A stretch of DNA of 64,000 bases from an uncultured Clostridia bacterium (GCA_944386635.1 CALXBV010000021.1:293-64292); one strand, 5' to 3'. Shown: positions 12,050 to 41,832, counted from the stretch's first letter. The notes: generated by a model from the letters alone, not told the origin. Made by a program: numbers and translations.

Positions 12050-13999
12050 CTATTTTCTTAAAAATCTTCTTTCTATTTCATATTTGGAAATAGGATAAGC
12101 TGTTGGTCTTCCATGAGGACAAGTAAATGGATTATCTAACTTAACCATTTGATCTATAAGACTTATCTGTTCCTTTGTATCTAGCTTCATATTTCCTTTT
12201 ACTGCAGCTTTACAAGCAAGAGTTGCTAAAAATCTAAACTCTTTTTCTGATTTTTCAGTTTTGCTTGCACCCATCATCTCTTCTATAATATCTCTAAACA
12301 TTGACTTATAGTCTATATCATATCCTATATTTGGCACTCCCGATATTTTTATTGTATCATCACCAAATTCTTCAATCATAAATCCACTTTTTTCAAACAT
12401 TTCTTTATTATTTAATACAATATCCATTTCTTTTGTAGATAATTTTACAAGAATTGGTATAAGTAATAGTTGAGTTTGCCTATCTTTAGAATAATATGCT
12501 TCTTTTATTTGTTCATATAATAATCTTTCATGTGCAGCGTGTTGATCAATTATATACATTTTATCTTCTATTTGGATAATTATATATGTATCAAATACAT
12601 TTCCAATATATTTATATAATATAGGTTCTTTCTCATCTTGTAACATTTCAGGCTTTTCTTCATATGTTTCAGTTTCAAATTTTGGTTTTTCTTCTAACTC
12701 CACTTGCTGTTCTTCAGATTGAGTATCTTGTGAAATATTATCTTGCTTTTCCACATTGTCCACAACTTCATTTTCTTTCTTATTTTCTTCTAATACTTCT
12801 GCATTGATATCTCCAATCTTTTCATTTAAACTTTCTATTAAACTATTACTATTACTTTGTTCAATAGGTTTATTATATAATTTTTTAGTTGCAGCCTCAA
12901 AATCGAACTTTTTCTCTTCTTTTTGAATTACTCCATTATTAATTAAATCTTTTGATATCTGCTCAACCTTTTGCTCTTCCTTTACAATAGAAAAAGGACT
13001 TGTCTCTTTATTATTCTTCTCCAAAGCACTTCTTACAGCATGATATATTATATCAAAAACTTTAGATTCATCAGAAAATTTTACTTCTAATTTTGCTGGA
13101 TGCACGTTAACATCTATATATGCTGGATTCACCTTTAAATCACACACAATAAATGGATGTTTATTTATAGCAAATTTCTGCTCACATGCCTTATCTATTG
13201 CTGTTGATATTGTTTTATCTTTTACATATCTAGTATTTATAAATGTATACTGATGCATTCTTGTAGATCTAGAAATAGAAGGGAGTCCAATCATTCCAGT
13301 AACTCTCATATCATCCATTTCATATTCTATTGGAACTACAGCATTATATATTTCTTTTCCAAATATATCATAAATAGTATCACGTAAATTTCCTGTTCCA
13401 GAAGTCTGAATTATTGTTTTTCCGTTATTTATATATCTAAAGCTTATATAAGGATTAGATAAAGCAATTCTTGTTACGACATCTTCTATATACCCTGCTT
13501 CTGTATAATCTTTCTTTAAAAATTTAAAACGTGCAGGTACATTATAAAAAACATCTCGTATTTCAATTTGTGTACCATCAACAGCTGGCACTTCCTGTTT
13601 TTCAACTATATTTCCAGCTTCAACTCTTACTTTTGTTCCAATATCTTCATTAATATTTTTAGTAGTAAGTGTTATTTTAGATATGGCTGCAACAGATGCT
13701 AGCGCCTCACCTCTAAATCCCATTGATGTTATTCTGCTCAAATCTTCTTCTTTTCTTATTTTACTTGTAGCATGACGCTCAAAAGCTAAATCTATATCAT
13801 CAGCTTTAAACCCAGTTCCATTATCGACAATTTTAATATAGCTAACTCCGCCTTTTCGTATCTCTATACTAATAGAAGTAGCTTTTGCATCTATTGAATT
13901 TTCAACTAGCTCTTTTACTATAGATGCAGGTCTATCCACAACTTCACCAGCAGCTATTTTATTAATTGTTTGTTCATCTAATAATACAATATCTCCCAT
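12050..13999 (-). CDS. mutL: DNA mismatch repair protein MutL
   Basis: 649 aa. N-terminal GHKL ATPase (NKIAAGEVVDRPASIVKELVENSIDA, GFRGEAL) and C-terminal dimerisation domain (QHAAHERLLYE). Confidence 0.95.
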   Translation of the reverse strand: MGDIVLLDEQTINKIAAGEVVDRPASIVKELVENSIDAKATSISIEIRKGGVSYIKIVDNGTGFKADDIDLAFERHATSKIRKEEDLSRITSMGFRGEALASVAAISKITLTTKNINEDIGTKVRVEAGNIVEKQEVPAVDGTQIEIRDVFYNVPARFKFLKKDYTEAGYIEDVVTRIALSNPYISFRYINNGKTIIQTSGTGNLRDTIYDIFGKEIYNAVVPIEYEMDDMRVTGMIGLPSISRSTRMHQYTFINTRYVKDKTISTAIDKACEQKFAINKHPFIVCDLKVNPAYIDVNVHPAKLEVKFSDESKVFDIIYHAVRSALEKNNKETSPFSIVKEEQKVEQISKDLINNGVIQKEEKKFDFEAATKKLYNKPIEQSNSNSLIESLNEKIGDINAEVLEENKKENEVVDNVEKQDNISQDTQSEEQQVELEEKPKFETETYEEKPEMLQDEKEPILYKYIGNVFDTYIIIQIEDKMYIIDQHAAHERLLYEQIKEAYYSKDRQTQLLLIPILVKLSTKEMDIVLNNKEMFEKSGFMIEEFGDDTIKISGVPNIGYDIDYKSMFRDIIEEMMGASKTEKSEKEFRFLATLACKAAVKGNMKLDTKEQISLIDQMVKLDNPFTCPHGRPTAYPISKYEIERRFLRK

Positions 14000-14082
14000 A
14001 GTAATCTCCTTTTTTTCATACTAATTATACTATTTTTTTATGATTTTTACAACAGACAGAAAAAAGCACAATAAATTTGTGC

Positions 14083-16686
14083 TTAATCTAACTTTTCTTT
14101 TAATTTATACAATACTTCCAAAGCATCTTTTGGTGTTAACTCATCTAAATCAATTTTTTCAAGCATACTTGTTACTTCTGCCATTTTATAATTAAACATA
14201 TCTACTTGCACTTCTTCTGTAGTTATTTTTTTCCTTTTTTCATCAATTGTCTTTTTAGCTAAATCTACATTTTCAAGATATTTTAGAATTTCTTTTGCAC
14301 GTGATATAACGCTCTTTTTGATTCCTGCTAACTTTGCAACATATATACCATATGACTCATCTGCTCCACCAGGCTTTATTTTCCTTAAGAAAATAACGTC
14401 ATCTCCTTTTTCCTTTACTTCAACTGAATAATTTTTTACTCCGTCTATTTTCTTTTCAAGTTCAATGAGTTCATGATAATGTGTTGCAAATAATGTTTTT
14501 GCACCTATTTTTTCTTTATCTGCAATATATTCAACTGTAGCCCATGCAATTGCTAGCCCATCATATGTTGATGTACCTCTTCCTATCTCATCTAATATTA
14601 CTAAACTATTTCTTGTAGCATTCTCTAAAATATTAGACAACTCTTGCATCTCAACCATAAATGTAGATTGTCCCATAGCCAGATCATCTGATGCGCCAAT
14701 TCTTGTAAATATTCTATCAACAATAGATATCTTAGCACTATCGGCAGATACAAAGCATCCAAGCTGTGCCATATACACAATCAGTGCTACCTGTCTCATA
14801 TACGTAGATTTACCAGCCATATTAGGTCCTGTTATTATTAAGAATCTATCATTATCATTACTTAAGTATGAATCGTTTGGTATAAATTGCTCATCTTTTA
14901 ATGCTTTTTCAACAACAGCATGTCTACCGTTTTTTATATCAATAATACCATCTTCTGTAATTTCAGGTTTTACATATTTATTATTTACAGCAACTGTTGC
15001 AAATGAACATAGAACATCTAATATTGACAAAATAGATGCTGTTTTTTGTATTCTTATTACTTGCTGTGCAACTTCTTCTCTTATCTTACAAAATAAATCA
15101 TATTCAACATCAACAAGTTTTTCCTTTGCTCCAAGTATTTTTTCTTCTATCTCTTTTAACTCTTCTGTTACATACCTTTCAGCTCCTGCAAGTGTTTGCT
15201 TACGAATATATCTATCTTCTGGTACTTGGTTTTTGTATGCGTTTGTTACCTCAATATAATATCCAAATACTCTATTATATCCAATTCTTAGCCACTTTCC
15301 TTTTATTCCTGTACGTTCTTTTTCTTTAGCTTCAAGTTCCATTAGCCAATCTTGTCCTTTAGAAGAAGCTAGCCTATATTCATCTACTTGCTTACTAAAT
15401 CCATCTTTGATTATTCCGCCTTCTTTTATAGTAACACTGGCATCTTCTATAATAGCTTTATCTATAAGTGTGTATACATCTTCTAATGTATCAATTGAAC
15501 TTAAAAATTCGCTAAAATAATTATCCTTTGTTTCACTTACAATTTTTCCTAGCAATTTCTTCAAGTCAGGTAATTTCATTAGTGAATTTTTAAGCGATAT
15601 CATTTCTCTTGCATTTACACTTCCACCTACAACTTTAGATATTAATCTTTCAATATCATATACAGACTTTAGTATCTCTTGTAACTCATCTCTATATATA
15701 TTATTTTTATACAATACGTCTACTGCATCTTGTCTTTTTTTAATTTCATTTATATTTAATAATGGTGACTCTAGCCAATGTCTTAGTGCTCTTCCCCCCA
15801 TTGCAGTTACAGTCTCATCCAATACCCATAAAAGACTTCCCTTCTTGGTCTTTTCTCTGTTTGCTTCTAATATTTCAAGATTTTTACGTGTTGTAGTATC
15901 TAATTGCATATACTTTTCAATCTCATATTTCTCTATATTATTTATTTGCTCAACTGAACCTTTTTGTGTCTCTTCTATATAATTTAATAATAGAGTTGCA
16001 GCAGCATTTTCTATTTGGCTTAATTGTATATCTTTATTTGTCATTATTTTGGATAATAATTCATTTTTTGAATCATTATTATATTTAGATATATATATAT
16101 TAAAAATTTTATTAATCTCTTTTAAAAATATAGCATTTTCTTTAGTATTATCAGATAAAATTATCTCAGATGGAGCGATTCTAGAGATCTCATTTAATAT
16201 TTTTGTATTTACATCTACTCCTTTAATACTAGAAATAAAAAACTCTCCTGTTGATATGTCACAAAATGAAATTGCACACTCTTTTTTTTCCATGTATATA
16301 CATGCAATGTAATTATTTTTCTTTTCATCCAACATTGTTAAATCTGTTATAGTTCCTGGAGTCACTATTTTAACAACATCTCTTTTTACAATACCTTTTG
16401 CATAACGAGGATCTTCTAGTTGCTCACAAATAGCTACTTTATATCCTTTCTCAATAAGTTTAGGAATATATGTATTTATTGCGTGATGTGGAATTCCACA
16501 CATTGGAGCTCTCTCCTCAAGTCCACAATCTTTACCTGTTAAAGTCAACTCCAACTCTTTACTAACAGTTATAGCATCATCAAAAAACATTTCATAAAAA
16601 TCACCAAGTCTATAAAATAAAATACAATCTTTATACTTTGCTTTTGTATCCAAATAATTTTGCATCATTGGTGTAACTGTTGCCAT
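14083..16686 (-). CDS. mutS: DNA mismatch repair protein MutS
   Basis: 867 aa. TPMMQQY-like N-terminus, Walker A GPNMAGKST, DEIGRGTSTYDG. Confidence 0.95.
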   Translation of the reverse strand: MATVTPMMQNYLDTKAKYKDCILFYRLGDFYEMFFDDAITVSKELELTLTGKDCGLEERAPMCGIPHHAINTYIPKLIEKGYKVAICEQLEDPRYAKGIVKRDVVKIVTPGTITDLTMLDEKKNNYIACIYMEKKECAISFCDISTGEFFISSIKGVDVNTKILNEISRIAPSEIILSDNTKENAIFLKEINKIFNIYISKYNNDSKNELLSKIMTNKDIQLSQIENAAATLLLNYIEETQKGSVEQINNIEKYEIEKYMQLDTTTRKNLEILEANREKTKKGSLLWVLDETVTAMGGRALRHWLESPLLNINEIKKRQDAVDVLYKNNIYRDELQEILKSVYDIERLISKVVGGSVNAREMISLKNSLMKLPDLKKLLGKIVSETKDNYFSEFLSSIDTLEDVYTLIDKAIIEDASVTIKEGGIIKDGFSKQVDEYRLASSKGQDWLMELEAKEKERTGIKGKWLRIGYNRVFGYYIEVTNAYKNQVPEDRYIRKQTLAGAERYVTEELKEIEEKILGAKEKLVDVEYDLFCKIREEVAQQVIRIQKTASILSILDVLCSFATVAVNNKYVKPEITEDGIIDIKNGRHAVVEKALKDEQFIPNDSYLSNDNDRFLIITGPNMAGKSTYMRQVALIVYMAQLGCFVSADSAKISIVDRIFTRIGASDDLAMGQSTFMVEMQELSNILENATRNSLVILDEIGRGTSTYDGLAIAWATVEYIADKEKIGAKTLFATHYHELIELEKKIDGVKNYSVEVKEKGDDVIFLRKIKPGGADESYGIYVAKLAGIKKSVISRAKEILKYLENVDLAKKTIDEKRKKITTEEVQVDMFNYKMAEVTSMLEKIDLDELTPKDALEVLYKLKEKLD

Positions 16687-35994: not shown

Positions 35995-36002
35995 AATATC
36001 AC

Positions 36003-36341
36003 CTAAAATTTAACTAGTTCTTCAATAGCTTCACCCATAGACTTTTGTAAATCAGCTAATATAACATTTATTTTCATTTCACATTCTAAAATTTTTCTAC
36101 AATCTTCATTTTGTATGACAATAGAATATAAATTCTCCATTTCTTGTTGTTTTTCTTTTGTTATATCTTTTCCATTTATGTAGCTAATTTGAACTTCATT
36201 TTGCTTTTCTTTGAAATCTTTTAGCATGTTATATACATTCTCATCTTTTTTTAAATCTTCTTTTAATTTTAAATACTCTTTATATTCTTGTGTTTGCTTA
36301 AATGAAGACACAAGATTGCTAATATCATCATGAAAACTCAT
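36003..36341 (-). CDS. YlbF/YmcA family regulatory protein
   Basis: The family pattern fits: FKQTQEYKEYLKLKEDLKKDENVYNMLKDFKEKQ plus a C-terminal helical region. Start placed at the second ATG, at 36341. Confidence 0.6.
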   Translation of the reverse strand: MSFHDDISNLVSSFKQTQEYKEYLKLKEDLKKDENVYNMLKDFKEKQNEVQISYINGKDITKEKQQEMENLYSIVIQNEDCRKILECEMKINVILADLQKSMGEAIEELVKF

Positions 36342-36404
36342 TAATATCATCCTTTCTTTAGGATAATATTATATATCATTTTTTTCTTTTTTTAAATGTT
36401 TTAT

Positions 36405-37097
36405 TTAAAATTCATCTAAACTAGTACAAATATCATACTGCACTTTTGTAAGCTTTTGTTTTCTTCTATTTACAAGTTCAGTTATATTTTGAATTATATT
36501 ATTCTCGTTTATACAATCATTATTAAATAATACTTTTGATTTTAATTTATTTAACTTACCAGCTATATTTTTTATTTCATTAATATTAAAACTATCATAT
36601 GCATCATACCAATCATTACATAGCTCTTTAAAATCATCCACTTTATTTAAGCACTTTTCCACACTAGAATATATTTTCTTTTTAAATTCAGTACTTGAAA
36701 TAAAATTTTTTATTCCTCCAAAGAAATCATCTATATAATTAAAAAATATATTACCATATTTTTTTCCAGCACTTACTATATCAATTCCTAAATTTATACA
36801 ATTTGTAAGTCCACCTTTAAAAGCAGTATCTATCATTTTATTGATTTCTTTTATATTATCATCTGATATTCCCATCATTTCTAAGCCTTCTCTTATACTA
36901 CTTGTAAGTGCCACATTTAATATTTGTAAAAAATCCTTTTCTTTTAATACTTTTTTTACATCAGATAAAATCTCTTTAATATGCTCATTAACGGGCATTC
37001 CTTTTATTACGTAATTTGCACCCTTATCTATAACATTTAATATTATATTTATTATCTCTTCTTTATTTTTTTCTATTTCAACTTCTGATTCTTTCAT
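36405..37097 (-). CDS. hypothetical helical protein
   Basis: 230 aa. Begins 2 nt after the ATPase gene. No TM segment and no recognised motif. Confidence 0.5.
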   Translation of the reverse strand: MKESEVEIEKNKEEIINIILNVIDKGANYVIKGMPVNEHIKEILSDVKKVLKEKDFLQILNVALTSSIREGLEMMGISDDNIKEINKMIDTAFKGGLTNCINLGIDIVSAGKKYGNIFFNYIDDFFGGIKNFISSTEFKKKIYSSVEKCLNKVDDFKELCNDWYDAYDSFNINEIKNIAGKLNKLKSKVLFNNDCINENNIIQNITELVNRRKQKLTKVQYDICTSLDEF

Positions 37098-37099
37098 TT

Positions 37100-38227
37100 T
37101 TACTCCTCCTTCATATTTACTAACTTATTTATTATTTTGTTTTTCACATTTTCAAATCTTATAACTCCTATAGATTTTAATAACCTTTTTATATTATATT
37201 TAATGTAAATCTTATTATCAGTTGATATATACTTGTCTATAAAAATACTATTTTTTATAATACCATAAAAACTGATTCCAATTTTCTTTTCTAATAAATT
37301 TATTATATCTTTTTTTCCGCAAAACATATTTGCTATAAATTTACTTTTCTTTACAACTTTTTCATCTATAAATTTTGTCTGTATATTATATTCTCTTACA
37401 GTATTATGAGAAATCTTAATACAAAAAATAATATCTACATTTATACTTTCTAATACATTATAAATGTTATTTATCATAAGTGTAGATGTATCTACTATCA
37501 CATAATCATAAAATCTTTTTAAATATAATAATATCTCTATAATAATATCAGTACATAAAGTAGATACACATTTAGAATTTAATATGTATTTAAGATTCTC
37601 ATATTTATCACTATCACTTTGATAGTCTACTATGTCCTTTAGTTCATTATTTTTAATATCTTCTATTAAGCTACTTAAAGCATAATTTTTACTACTTTTT
37701 ACATATATATCTAAACTTGGATATATAAGATCTAGATCTACAACAACCACACTTTTATATGTATTTCTAGCTATTTCTTCAGATAATATTTTACAAAATA
37801 TTGTTTTACCGGACTTTCTTAAACCAGTCACAATTATAATATTACTTTTTTCCTCTTTAGTTTTATATATTACCATTTTAGGATTATTTATATTATCTAA
37901 AATTTCATCAAAAGGAACTGTATCTCCAACTATAATATTAAATATTTCTTTAGAAAAAAGTTTTTCTTTTATATCTTTTGTTATCTCTTTTAATATTACA
38001 ATAATTCTATTTTTACTGTTCTTATCTTTTATATTACATAGATAATCTATAAAACTCATTTTACCATGAAGAGCATCTCTTGTTATTATAATAAAAGATT
38101 CATTTAAATTAATCATTTCTAATACTTGTTCCTTTGTTTTTAAAATATAAACTTCATATTTATCACAATATACATCTTTAATTCTTTTTTCTAAATATTT
38201 ACTATTGATTGCTATTATCATTTTCAT
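37100..38227 (-). CDS. P-loop ATPase with an N-terminal pseudo-receiver domain (TadZ/CpaE-like architecture)
   Basis: 375 aa. The N-terminal ~115 aa are CheY-like but lack the acidic pocket (IIAINSK rather than DD). Walker A GLRKSGKT. VVVVDLDLIYPSLD and VIVDTS strings resemble MinD/ParA-class proteins. Overlaps the upstream ORF by 26 nt. Confidence 0.6.
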   Translation of the reverse strand: MKMIIAINSKYLEKRIKDVYCDKYEVYILKTKEQVLEMINLNESFIIITRDALHGKMSFIDYLCNIKDKNSKNRIIVILKEITKDIKEKLFSKEIFNIIVGDTVPFDEILDNINNPKMVIYKTKEEKSNIIIVTGLRKSGKTIFCKILSEEIARNTYKSVVVVDLDLIYPSLDIYVKSSKNYALSSLIEDIKNNELKDIVDYQSDSDKYENLKYILNSKCVSTLCTDIIIEILLYLKRFYDYVIVDTSTLMINNIYNVLESINVDIIFCIKISHNTVREYNIQTKFIDEKVVKKSKFIANMFCGKKDIINLLEKKIGISFYGIIKNSIFIDKYISTDNKIYIKYNIKRLLKSIGVIRFENVKNKIINKLVNMKEE

Positions 38228-40439
38228 TTAAAAGTATCCTTTCGTATTCATTTGCTATTACCACAATTGGTGCTTTATTGTTTGATACAGAAAGTATAGC
38301 CTCTCCCTTTTGCAAGCAATCCACATTAAAATCTGATAAATCTATAAATTTATTTAAACTATCTGTATCTTTATATGTCATTTTAAATATCAATTTAAAA
38401 GACGAATTATTTAATATGCTCTTTGCATAAATACCATTATCATAAGTAAAAAAATCGTTAATATCTTGAGTTATAGTTATAATTGAAGCTTTTCTTTTTC
38501 TTATTGTCTTATACATATTAGATATACTTAATAATAAGTCTTTGCTTTGTGCATATTTCCACATTTCATCTATATATATAATTGTATTTTTATCATTTAA
38601 ATAATTATTTGCCAAACTATCTAAGATATAACTTATAATTTTAGCATTATTTTTTAAATACTTTGTATCGATTACATATAAGCTATTATCTAAAGATATA
38701 TTTGTTATATTAGAAAAAAATTTAATATCATTTTCTATCATATCATTTAAAATATTTTTTAAATGATAGTTATCTATAATATTTAACAGATCATTTAATG
38801 TAGGAAATTTATCATTGTCTATAAAAACATTGTCTAAATATATTAAATTATCATCTTCATTTTTAAATATTGTACTTATATCATTAGTTATATTAAATTT
38901 ATTATATATTTCTTTTAATTTAATTTTTAAATATTCTTTATACGTATTTTCAATATCACATACTTTGATTAAAAAATTTACTATTTTTTCTATCTTTTCT
39001 TGTAAATAATTACTTACATCATCTACTTTATCAATATCTTTTTTAGTTATTTGTAATATATTAAAATACTTACCACCACTTATATTCTGTCCTTCTATAT
39101 TACTACAAAGCTTTATATACTCACTCTCGATATCAAAAACTATCTGCTTCATATTCTTAAAAAAGTTTCTTATAATGTTTAACTTAACAAAATATGATTT
39201 TCCACTTCCACTGCTTCCAAATATGCACATATTAGAATTTTCATATTTATCTGCGAATATGTCTAATATACATATTTTATTGTCCATTTTAGTATATCCT
39301 ACTAATACTCCATTTATATCTATAAAATTATTACTAATATATGGAAAAATATTTGCTAAACTACTACTGGTTAAGAAAATATTATACTTATTATTTTTTT
39401 GTAAAGGTAAATTAGAAAGATAATAATTTAAATGTCTGAAATTAGTAACTTCCGAAATAAAATTTTTTGAATAAAGTTTTGCTTTAAAATTTGATACACT
39501 CTTATATAAAGCTGTTAAATCCTCTGAATAAAAAGTTAATATAATATTTACATTGAATACTTCCTGATTTTCAATTTGTATCTTTTTACGTAATTCTTTT
39601 GCCTCCCTAGATGATTGATTTATTATATCCATATTATTTTGATTAACTTTAGTAGTATGCTTTTCACTCTCAGATAGACCTATTGTATAAGTAATATCAT
39701 TTAGTACTTTATATGTATCTAATTTTTTTATATAAATAGACATATCATAATCTATATTTTTATCTATATCATTTATTAAATCTAAAAAGAAAATGTACTC
39801 TGGCAAAGAAATAATATGTAAGGATATAACATATTTGTTACCTACTATGATATATTTAAAATTAGTATTGTCAACAAAATCTGGTAAAACCTCATTTATG
39901 TCTATAATATCACCTCTTTATTAATAGTCTCATACATTAATACTTGTAATTTTTTCTTAGATACTATTCTTTTAGTTTTGCATCCAATATTATCTATACC
40001 ACGTACTATATTATCTATACTATTAATGTCATATGAAAAATCTTCTTTCAACGAGACTACTAAATAAAACTTTGTAGTATATATTTTTTCTTTTTCTAAC
40101 TGGGCTCCAATACTATAAATATAATTATTAACATGTTCCAAATACTTTTTACTTCCATTTTTATTTATATAGATTTTAAGATTGGATATATATTTTTGAA
40201 TATTAATTTTTTTATTTGATATATAAATTTGAAAATCAAAATTAAGTTCACGAAGAAATTCACTATAAAGATTTAAAATATTAGATTGAACATCTATTGA
40301 AAAATTTAAAAATGTAACTGGTTCAACTTCATAAATATACACTTTTTTTACAATGTCTTTTTCTTTAACTAGTATATATTTATCTGTTATATCTATAAGA
40401 TTAAATATTTCTTTTACATCACCATATTTTATTAGTCAT
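38202..40439 (-). pseudogene. VirB4/TrsE-like conjugation-type ATPase, reading frame broken twice
   Basis: The C-terminal 534-aa frame has Walker A GSSGSGKS, IVFDIESEY, Walker B IIYIDEMWKY and ITITQD. The N-terminal domain (YIYEVEPVTFLNFSIDVQSNILNLYSEFLRELNFDFQI) is in another frame and ends with TAG at 39902. The only RBS-plus-ATG (GGAGGGG-ATG at 40439) reads MTNKIW-stop, and the long frame opens 1 nt later. Confidence 0.6.
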
Positions 40440-40460
40440 CCCCTCCATTCTTACAACAAA

Positions 40461-40527
40461 TTTATACCATTATTTTATATAGACGTCAATAGTATTTTAT
40501 TCACATTTTGTCGCAAGTTTCGACATA
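40461..40527 (-). promoter_or_regulatory. composite promoter, copy 1 (upstream of the VirB4-like gene)
   Basis: The minus strand reads TATGTCGAAACTTGCGA (17-mer containing TGTCGAA), 21 nt, TTGACG, a 17-nt spacer ending TGG, then TATAAA. The ATG at 40439 follows 21 nt later. Confidence 0.6.
40511..40527 (+). repeat. 17-nt perfect direct repeat, copy 1 (TCGCAAGTTTCGACATA)
   Basis: Identical to 41816..41832. Its reverse complement contains the Spo0A-box consensus TGTCGAA. Confidence 0.9.
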
Positions 40528-40605
40528 CATTATTTTACTTTTATATACTAAATTATCACAAAGTAAAAAGCTGTGCATATAATTTAGTATATAGGAGATG
40601 ATAAT

Positions 40606-40770
40606 ATGAATGATAACAATAATAACAACATGAACAAAAAATTAATGGACGTATTAGGCTCTTTAGATAAAGAGAAAATAGAACAAGTAACAAGAATGGT
40701 TCAAAATATGTCTAGTGAGGATTTAAATAATATAGCAAAAATGCTAGGTGTAAATAACAAGAAAAAGTAA
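40606..40770 (+). CDS. small Asn-rich protein (54 aa), missing from the ORF track
   Basis: Own translation: MNDNNNNNMNKKLMDVLGSLDKEKIEQVTRMVQNMSSEDLNNIAKMLGVNNKKK. AGGAGA RBS. The stop lies 1 nt before the next ATG. Confidence 0.55.
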   Translation: MNDNNNNNMNKKLMDVLGSLDKEKIEQVTRMVQNMSSEDLNNIAKMLGVNNKKK

Positions 40771-41156: not shown

Positions 41157-41618
41157 ATGTATTATTCAAATTATAATCCATTTTATATGCGTAATAGAAA
41201 TTATTATAATAGAGGAATACCAAATACATTAGTTAATAATACTCAAAATAGCAAAGAAAATAGTAAAGAAGAAGAAAAAAAAGATATTGAACCGCCTCAA
41301 AGCGATACAATATCTTTCCAAAAGTTTTACAATAATAATGCTAGTCAAAATAAAGAAGTTAATGATAGCAATATTAGCGAAAATGAAACTAATACACGCA
41401 CTAATAATTCTACAACTAGAAAGAGAAATAATAGATTTTTTTCATTTGATAAAAATCAAATTAATATTCTAGGTTTCTCTTTTGAAATAGATGATCTAAT
41501 AATAATAGGAATAATTATATTATTGCTATTAGAATCAGATGAAAACTATGCACTTATTATTATATTAGGATTAATACTGCTTAATGTAAACTTAAGTGAT
41601 ATCCTTAATATTTTCTAA
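41157..41618 (+). CDS. Asn-rich protein with a C-terminal TM segment
   Basis: ATG at 41157 behind AAGGATAG. C-terminal hydrophobic stretch LIIIGIIILLLLESDENYALIIILGLILLNV. Confidence 0.5.
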   Translation: MYYSNYNPFYMRNRNYYNRGIPNTLVNNTQNSKENSKEEEKKDIEPPQSDTISFQKFYNNNASQNKEVNDSNISENETNTRTNNSTTRKRNNRFFSFDKNQINILGFSFEIDDLIIIGIIILLLLESDENYALIIILGLILLNVNLSDILNIF

Positions 41619-41741
41619 ATAGTATTTTGTAAGTAGTACATCTATCTCTTCACTAGTTTTTAATATTCGTTCATACGAACAATTTTCTTCAATTTCTTTG
41701 TCTAACCTTTGTTTTAAAATCTCGATTTCGTCAGTTATCAT
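41592..41741 (-). CDS. Spo0E-family aspartyl-phosphate phosphatase-like protein (49 aa), missing from the ORF track
   Basis: Own translation: MITDEIEILKQRLDKEIEENCSYERILKTSEEIDVLLTKYYLENIKDIT. It fits the Spo0E pattern (IE.L+..L....... S.E.D.L...Y). GAGGAGA RBS. The 3' end overlaps the convergent 156-aa ORF by 27 nt. Confidence 0.6.
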   Translation of the reverse strand: MITDEIEILKQRLDKEIEENCSYERILKTSEEIDVLLTKYYLENIKDIT

Positions 41742-41765: not shown

Positions 41766-41832
41766 TTTATACCATTTGTTAAGCCAATAGTCAACATTTT
41801 ATACTTGCTTTTTCATCGCAAGTTTCGACATA
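41766..41832 (-). promoter_or_regulatory. composite promoter, copy 2 (upstream of the Spo0E-like gene)
   Basis: Same blueprint as 40461..40527: the 17-mer, 21 nt, TTGACT, a 17-nt spacer ending TGG, then TATAAA. The ATG at 41741 follows 24 nt later. Confidence 0.6.
41816..41832 (+). repeat. 17-nt perfect direct repeat, copy 2 (TCGCAAGTTTCGACATA)
   Basis: Identical to 40511..40527. Confidence 0.9.

Follow-up and report, generated by a model that had tools for sequence, protein, structure and literature searches.

At positions 36405-40439 of a 64,000-nucleotide stretch of DNA from an uncultured Clostridia bacterium (CALXBV010000021.1:293-64292; the whole stretch is referred to below as the window), the minus strand holds four close-packed open reading frames (ORFs), which we call g1 to g4. 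A first-pass annotation made from the sequence alone had described this unit as three tightly packed minus-strand genes; the tight packing and the strand stand, and the number of genes is four. VirB4 is regarded as the hallmark ATPase of conjugation and of type IV secretion systems, TadZ as a hallmark of Tad pili, and they are considered to belong to unrelated machines; the operon described here, which contains a relative of each, is built from known families in a new combination. Comparison of the locus among related genomes indicates that the operon is intact, under selection, vertically inherited and restricted to one lineage, and that it is not the remnant of a mobile element. The genes are listed in the order of transcription, with g1 and g2 given from their probable starts.

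39902..40432 (-), g1: predicted stand-alone VirB4 N-terminal-domain protein; counted from a conserved in-frame ATA (40430-40432) it has about 176 aa, and counted from the first canonical start, a GTG at 40342 (ORF 39902-40342), it would have 146 aa
38202..39905 (-), g2: predicted VirB4 C-terminal motor ATPase, about 567 aa from an ATA at 39903-39905; the first canonical start is a TTG at 39806 (ORF 38202-39806), which would give 534 aa
37100..38227 (-), g3: predicted TadZ/CpaE-type protein, 375 aa, with a 26-nt overlap with g2; pseudo-receiver domain at residues 1-121, MinD/ParA-like P-loop domain at residues 130-340
36405..37097 (-), g4: conserved protein of 230 aa, predicted to be all-alpha and soluble, of a fold family without match; begins 2 nt beyond the g3 stop

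The proteins of the operon

The assignment of g2 to VirB4 is drawn from its profile matches, and we call it a divergent VirB4 because all of its scores fall well under the curated family cut-offs. Among the NCBIfam models, g2 matches VirB4_plasma (8e-53; 188 bits against a cut-off of 590), the CD1110 family (2e-38; 141 against 325), TraC (6e-28) and VirB4_CagE (1e-16; 57 against 643), whereas HerA reaches just 0.006. The Pfam matches are P-loop_TraG, AAA_10 and DUF87, and the sole PDB sequence match is 4ag5, a VirB4 C-terminal domain (E 1e-21). With VirB4 models scoring far better than HerA and with 4ag5 as the match in the PDB, the VirB4 assignment made in the first-pass annotation is borne out, and the two ATPase motifs that it had listed, GSSGSGKS and IDEMWKY, are both read in g2 (the second within IYIDEMWKY). 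Across 36 sequences, Walker A (GSSGxGKS) and Walker B (hhhDExW) are unchanged. A PHROG match of g2 to "terminase large subunit" (5e-15) was set aside as generic P-loop likeness, far weaker than the VirB4 matches.

When g2 is considered alone, its alignments to the NCBIfam VirB4 models begin at profile positions 349 of 894 and 233 of 752; when g1 and g2 are concatenated, the alignments extend collinearly to positions 108 and 39, and the scores are raised. Orthologues of g1 also carry a precomputed match to PF26593 (TraC-like). As judged from these alignments, g1 is the missing N-terminal part of VirB4, and g2 is the hexameric-motor domain with its catalytic motifs intact. The two together are collinear with the whole profile of the VirB4/TraC/TrsE-PrgJ ATPases of type IV secretion systems (T4SS), and g2 shares with them the VirB4 C-terminal P-loop domain; the comparators were the Firmicutes CD1110 family, the Mbov_0397 family of a Mycoplasma integrative and conjugative element (ICE), and 4AG5 of Thermoanaerobacter pseudethanolicus. 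In these systems the ATPase is normally one polypeptide, with the N-domain fused to the motor, whereas here it is encoded by two genes throughout the lineage.

The ATPase had previously been taken for a damaged gene in need of repair, and it had been asked whether relatives carry it intact as one gene. It is split there too, with the catalytic motifs invariant: g1 and g2 are separate ORFs with a stop codon between them in all 31 related loci, each from a different species, in which the junction was open to examination. Depending on the species, the two frames are offset by 0, 1 or 2, and in distant loci g2 has a normal ribosome-binding site (RBS) and an ATG directly after the g1 stop. With the split present in 31 of 31 relatives, the TGA at 40436-40438 and the TAG at 39902-39904 are not lesions. 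The best 120 homologues of g2 span 409-561 aa, the complete ones 512-561 aa. These comparisons indicate that the division of VirB4 into two polypeptides predates the diversification of the lineage. Two other accounts of the junction were rejected, namely a pseudogene whose frameshift would need repair (on the lengths of the g2 homologues, the conserved split and the purifying selection) and programmed -1 frameshifting (no slippery heptamer is present, the offsets are 0, 1 and 2, and the stops are always there).

Measured against two relatives, the ratio of non-synonymous to synonymous substitution rates (dN/dS) is 0.07-0.17 for g1, 0.13-0.21 for g2, 0.24-0.29 for g3 and 0.09-0.26 for g4. Because dN/dS lies between 0.07 and 0.29 in all four genes, and because Walker A and Walker B are invariant, we regard the four genes as functional and under purifying selection.

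In the window subclade, the conserved N-termini of g1 and g2 extend upstream of any ATG, GTG or TTG. By three-frame reading, the g1 frame runs upstream to the TGA at 40436-40438, and the g2 frame runs upstream into an overlap with the TAG stop of g1 at 39902-39904. The segments upstream of the canonical starts appear to be translated, because dN/dS is 0.02-0.25 in the g1 segment (before the GTG) and about 0.10 in the g2 segment (before the TTG), and on this basis we assign the coordinates 39902-40432 (176 aa) to g1 and 38202-39905 (567 aa) to g2. For g1, an in-frame AT[ATC] stands 7-9 nt past a GGAGG in 17 of the 17 loci of the window clade (ATA in 11 of them), and the corresponding site in the window was located from the sequence and the comparative table:

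40442..40446 (-), Shine-Dalgarno GGAGG of g1, 9 nt upstream of the ATA

An upstream "ATG GAG GGA" is this Shine-Dalgarno site itself; its "ATG" is no start codon in 7 loci, and in 3 it is followed by an in-frame stop (L026, which is among these, keeps the ATG). For g2, an ATA stands 7 nt past (A/G)GAGG and overlaps the TAG of g1 in most window-clade loci, and in some relatives its place is taken by TAATG or a nearby ATG. Hence, g1 and g2 are probably AUA-initiated in the window subclade, with AUU or AUC in relatives, and g2 is probably translationally coupled to g1, since its AUA overlaps the g1 stop. Such coupled, AUA-initiated genes would illustrate how intact genes can be mistaken for pseudogenes in very AT-rich genomes. 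As a consequence of the apparent AUA, AUU and AUC starts, gene callers cut the two genes variously across the species of L001-L027, with lengths of 20-214 aa for g1 and 516-611 aa for g2.

The AlphaFold2 (AF2) model of g3, with a predicted local distance difference test score (pLDDT) of 86.4, has two domains, the first receiver-like with a (beta-alpha)5 topology and the second a P-loop domain of MinD/ParA type. Walker A reads GLRKSGKT and is without the signature lysine of MinD. In an alignment of 19 g3 homologues, G-x4-GKT is invariant, the signature position is occupied by L, T, S, V, Q, G or A, Walker B reads "YDYVIVDTS", and a further motif, "KEKLFSKEIFNIIEG", is conserved; the acidic pair, the Thr/Ser and the Lys of receiver domains are not conserved as such. 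The best Foldseek match, and the sole full-length one (383 columns), is 3fkq, the Eubacterium rectale TadZ structure of Xu et al. 2012 (cited in PMC6668835), and the next matches, to MinD, FlhG, ParA, Soj and Wzc, cover the C-terminal domain only. Orthologues of g3 match AAA_31, CbiA and ParA; no TadZ/CpaE model of Pfam or NCBIfam matches g3 itself, the sequence likeness being too low. The model and its fold match identify g3 as TadZ-type, with a predicted atypical receiver and a predicted MinD/ParA-like ATP-binding domain that lacks the signature lysine, and so agree with the earlier description of a 375-aa protein of TadZ/CpaE architecture, given 3fkq as the top fold match and a receiver domain without the acidic pocket. 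What g3 shares with TadZ/CpaE (3FKQ) is the two-domain build, the atypical Walker A and the fold match over the full length. TadZ is a low-activity ATPase with an atypical Walker A that serves as a polar hub recruiting Tad components (PMC6668835).

The description of g4 as a helical 230-aa protein with no recognisable motif was likewise correct. The AF2 model (pLDDT 90.8; predicted template-modelling score, pTM, 0.80) is all-helical with 11 helices, and we found no match in Pfam, NCBIfam, PHROGs or PADLOC, no PDB sequence match and no PDB fold match (best E 0.2). Among the proteins of the operon g4 is the best conserved, and its invariant residues include C160, W163, Y167 and an I-Q-N motif. 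A profile search of 1.84 billion protein representatives returned 112 clusters, nearly all of about 230-260 aa; g4 is lineage-restricted. One match of the profile, of 2,524 aa, is a saposin-repeat protein and was discarded as a compositional artefact. We also rejected the idea that g4 is a soluble derivative of the cytoplasmic domain of TadC/T2SSF (hhalign probability 0.3%, no GspF-like fold match).

Inheritance at a fixed site and the six-gene relatives

A scan with the g4 profile of one genome per GTDB species found 41 loci, all of them in species-level metagenome-assembled genomes of uncultured gut Clostridia (from human, rabbit, ruminant and other hosts), and tblastn recovered the same gene order and flanks wherever there was enough sequence. 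Every locus with sufficient flank has the operon at one site, bounded by M16 peptidase genes and ymcA/ylbF. Along the locus, two M16 peptidases are followed by a Spo0E-like 49-aa gene, by three small divergent genes and by g1-g4, and then come YlbF/YmcA, a nucleotidyltransferase, a radical-SAM protein and a NUDIX protein. This whole neighbourhood is common to orthologous loci in which g2 is 50-85% identical; the flanks are identical in species whose M16 peptidase is 75-97% identical, and more distant species keep M16, the small divergent genes and YlbF.

The plasmid search covered 72,556 plasmids and gave no match for g4 and generic weak P-loop matches only for g3. The identity of g2 to plasmid VirB4s is at most 26%, and its best plasmid relative, on pINGR16-02E1 of C. 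botulinum, has surroundings of an ordinary Gram-positive T4SS-like kind, with neither TadZ-like nor g4 genes. No VirB6-like or VirB8-like gene, hydrolase, coupling protein or relaxase was found within 10 kb of the orthologous loci or among the large ORFs of the window, and no integrase near the orthologous loci (annotated neighbours) or among the large window ORFs. The ten largest other window ORFs tested are housekeeping genes (e.g. MutS, MutL, PurA and PurB), and tblastn found no T2SSE or T2SSF homologue in the window, so that the earlier observation that the window holds no other T4SS or Tad parts is sustained. Unlike VirB4 T4SS systems, g1 and g2 are chromosomal, vertically inherited and linked to Tad-type genes, and they have no VirB6-like channel, hydrolase, coupling protein or relaxase nearby. 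The suggestion that the unit is the remnant of a mobile element is not upheld: in 41 species-level genomes the operon occupies the same core site, purifying selection acts on it, and the plasmid search was negative for g4 and gave only generic P-loop matches for g3. It is because of the fixed site and flanks, the outcome of the plasmid search and the low identity of g2 to plasmid VirB4s that we place the operon outside the mobile elements.

The G+C content falls to 0.20-0.21 over the operon (positions 36001-40000), compared with about 0.25-0.27 in the flanking genes, despite the vertical inheritance.

Fifteen more distant loci carry two further genes between g3 and g4. The first encodes a T2SSE-family ATPase of about 400 aa (PF00437, 6e-28), which matches the NCBIfam models of VirB11 (3e-37), the TadA family (1e-33) and TrbB (1e-28), all under the cut-offs and VirB11 slightly better than TadA. 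The second encodes a T2SSF-family membrane protein of about 265-290 aa (PF00482, 8e-7 in L044). When placed on a midpoint-rooted neighbour-joining tree of g2+g4, the T2SSE/T2SSF pair is present in all basal lineages and patchy in a middle clade, and the window clade lacks it altogether. Only in loci without the pair does g4 come directly after g3, and the four core genes are never lost across the loci. This distribution suggests a six-gene ancestral cluster and several independent losses of the pair. The window form is, on this comparison, a reduced chromosomal VirB4/Tad-like hybrid and not a deleted conjugative element, because deeper relatives keep VirB11/TadA-like and TadB/C-like genes between g3 and g4. 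The earlier term "stripped-down" is therefore apt relative to the six-gene relatives, and fails if it is meant to describe a deleted copy of a conjugative element. The series from six genes to four amounts to a natural dissection of the core parts.

As with TadZ/CpaE, the distant g3 orthologues stand directly upstream of TadA/VirB11-like and TadB/C-like genes, and the six-gene relatives, with adjacent TadZ-like, T2SSE and T2SSF genes, share this arrangement with the Tad/Epd-like core (TadZ-TadA-TadB/C) of the type IV filament superfamily (Denise, Abby and Rocha 2019; PMC6668835). The differences are of several kinds. In the window clade, g3 has no TadA or TadB/C neighbour, whereas the 15 distant loci have them with a single T2SSF; a split VirB4 always precedes g3, and g4 lies in the same operon. 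Six-gene relatives have one platform gene where Tad has two, they add the VirB4 pair and g4, and no pilins, peptidase or secretin-type parts were found in them. A simple motif scan detected no pilin-like ORF in the window or within about 8 kb in the six-gene loci, and no peptidase A24 occurs among the annotated neighbours of the orthologous loci.

Putative promoter and operator

The intergenic region upstream of g1 contains a putative promoter and, further upstream, an operator-like palindrome:

40461..40489 (-), putative sigma-A promoter: -35 TTGACG at 40484-40489, 17-nt spacer, extended -10 TG-g-TATAAA at 40461-40469
40509..40525 (-), putative operator TGTCGAAACTTGCGACA, 19 nt upstream of the -35; a perfect heptamer and an imperfect inverted copy

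The promoter pattern, TTGAC-N-TGgTATAA[AG], recurs at this position across the window clade and many distant loci. The 0A box, to which Spo0A~P binds, is TGNCGAA and lies near sigma-A or sigma-H promoters; in the operator, a perfect Spo0A-box heptamer, TGTCGAA, is at 40519-40525, 29 nt upstream of the -35. The sequence TGTCGAAAnTTGCGA is kept in 15 of the 17 window-clade loci (L015 and L017 have AGTCGAA instead), and it is also present in L028-L031, L035, L038 and L041, while the flanking intergenic DNA diverges. TGTCGAA occurs in 7 copies in the window against 1.7 expected, and none of 100 shuffles reaches 7. The operator and this enrichment fit Spo0A control of the operon, and they suggest its membership of the sporulation regulon. 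The claim that the unit has its own Spo0A-box promoter thus holds to the extent that a perfect TGTCGAA, which the window clade and several distant loci retain, lies upstream of a putative promoter of sigma-A type.

In DNA as AT-rich as this, a generic promoter scan gave no useful signal, with 63 sites against 55 expected. The scan called a single "terminator" in the intergenic region, at 40509-40525, which is the operator palindrome as it reads on the opposite strand, and another (36981-36998, plus strand), which lies inside g4; both were rejected. A further TGTCGAA, at 41824-41830 on the minus strand, is found 83 nt upstream of the Spo0E-like 49-aa gene (41592-41741, minus strand; motif SEEIDVLL).

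Proposed role, rival explanations and neighbouring genes

The reading that we favour, and that we hold to be probable though by no means assured, is that of a functional, vertically inherited g1-g2-g3-g4 operon in a very AT-rich gut Clostridia lineage, whose split VirB4, TadZ-type hub and helical protein act as one module. By analogy with TadZ as a localisation hub, g3 would bring the complex to a site at the membrane or the cell pole and dock the g1/g2 motor, g4 would be an adaptor or a substrate-binding partner, and the motor would power the assembly or translocation of a substrate. The reduced form would need unlinked membrane partners, or else the module would be cytoplasmic. The sigma-A promoter with its extended -10, together with the Spo0A-box-like operator, may switch the module on at stationary phase or at entry into sporulation. 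Of the two readings offered by the first-pass annotation, the "undescribed two-ATPase module" comes close to the evidence and is the nearer to the truth. In the literature, of which our coverage was incomplete so that novelty is unproven, we found no description of a cluster that joins VirB4 with TadZ, CpaE or Spo0A.

A number of findings weigh against this role for the module. The scores on the VirB4, VirB11 and TadA family models are all far under the curated cut-offs. The operon of the window clade encodes no membrane protein, so that a role in translocation needs partners, of which none were found, and even in the six-gene loci there is no pilin, prepilin peptidase, VirB6, coupling protein or relaxase within about 8-10 kb. 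The second half-site of the operator is a poor 0A box, and about ten distant loci, in which the intergenic region is short, lack the operator (L032-L034, L036, L039, L042, L043, L045, L050 and L053). The tree, finally, carries no support values, and the number of losses is uncertain.

More speculatively, and with doubts that outweigh our confidence, we suggest that the lineage may possess a non-conjugative, pilin-less chromosomal hybrid machine that links the superfamily of type IV filaments with that of type IV secretion. Such a machine would comprise a two-piece VirB4, a TadZ-like organiser and g4 as a protein of new fold, joined in the ancestral form by a VirB11/TadA-like ATPase and a TadB/C-like platform; its action may fall at the onset of sporulation, and its four-gene core would work with no membrane platform of its own. 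The linkage of a permanently split VirB4 with TadZ in a stable chromosomal operon that holds neither DNA-transfer genes nor pilins indicates that these modules can be recombined for non-conjugative, host-encoded use. The practical impact is limited at present, as the hosts are uncultured.

Other explanations have to account for the same observations. If the locus were the remnant of a decaying conjugative element or ICE, the ATPase would be a frameshifted pseudogene and its neighbours leftover cargo, and indeed members of the g2 family otherwise occur typically in ICEs and plasmids, the G+C content of the operon dips to 0.20-0.21 against about 0.26 around it, and canonical starts are missing, with in-frame stops at 40436-40438 and 39902-39904. 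However, position and flanks are constant in 41 species-level genomes, and the split occurs in every locus examined, with varying frame offsets and with a proper RBS and ATG in distant loci; purifying selection reaches the segments upstream of the canonical starts, and the catalytic motifs are invariant. Moreover, g4 has no plasmid homologue and g3 a weak P-loop likeness only, and no integrase, relaxase or coupling protein lies nearby. We consider the remnant explanation largely refuted and its probability very small. A similarly slight probability attaches to an anti-phage defence system built around a HerA/VirB4-like ATPase. The PADLOC matches of g2 that would support it (mad8, 2e-12; HerA models, 4e-5) are weak matches of a single gene, for which the defence reading was rejected, whereas g3 and g4 have no PADLOC match better than 0.005 and the set of genes matches no defined system. 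Nor does the fixed position in the core genome resemble a defence-island context; no nuclease, Sir2, methylase or other effector domain is encoded, and the slow vertical evolution is unlike that of defence genes.

A part in a Tad-type (type IVc) pilus, with TadA, TadB/C, the Flp pilin and the prepilin peptidase encoded elsewhere in the genome and the VirB4 pair as an accessory, would agree with the TadZ-like fold and architecture of g3 and with the TadA/VirB11-like and TadB/C-like genes directly after g3 in distant orthologous loci. We nevertheless judge it unlikely: neither the window as a whole nor the six-gene loci, over about 8 kb, showed a pilin-like ORF or a prepilin peptidase, there is one T2SSF gene where Tad has two, and the T2SSE/T2SSF pair is absent from several separate branches while VirB4, the TadZ-like gene and g4 are always kept, which makes the pair the accessory and not the core. 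VirB4 belongs to the FtsK-HerA superfamily, and with this membership, the weak DUF87/HerA matches of g2, and the MinD/ParA/Soj-like ATPase domain of g3, one could also picture a cytoplasmic module for DNA handling or segregation, in which a MinD/ParA-like positioning ATPase works with a motor of the FtsK/HerA superfamily, for example in asymmetric division or sporulation. The reduced operon encodes soluble proteins only, which would suit such a module, as would the Spo0A-box-like operator and the neighbours ymcA, mutS and mutL. Yet g2 scores far better on VirB4 than on HerA or FtsK models, the full-length match of g3 is to TadZ and not to Soj/ParA, g3 is without the signature lysine of ParA/MinD dimers, and no DNA-binding domain was detected in any of the four proteins; we rate this possibility as quite unlikely.

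Downstream of g4, a YlbF/YmcA-family gene (36003-36350, minus strand) follows directly after a 54-nt gap in which no terminator was found, and mutS-mutL lies further downstream of the operon in the window (12050-16686, minus strand). We take this arrangement of ylbF/ymcA and mutS-mutL to recall ymcA-cotE-mutS-mutL of Bacillus subtilis. In distant species the downstream flank is less fixed than the upstream one because of insertions between g4 and ylbF: several six-gene loci have extra genes there (L031, L032, L035, L036, L039, L041 and L042), which in L035 (8717-11881) are a PGA_cap-like protein and an alpha-amylase.

On the other side of the operon, ORF reading gives three small divergent genes:

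40606-40770 (+), 54 aa
40772-41155 (+), 127 aa
41148-41618 (+), 156 aa

Their products are asparagine-rich, have no family matches in Pfam or NCBIfam, and are co-conserved with the operon lineage-wide; the 156-aa protein has a C-terminal hydrophobic segment, and the 127-aa protein is found beside g1 in nearly all loci, the most distant ones included. On the strand of these genes, at about 40545-40585 and before the 54-aa gene, lies the motif [AT]TCACA-N13-15-TGCATATAA, which is conserved in all related loci, the most distant ones included, and whose "AC ... CATA" spacing recalls, as we assume, the promoters of mother-cell sporulation sigma factors (SigK/SigE-type).

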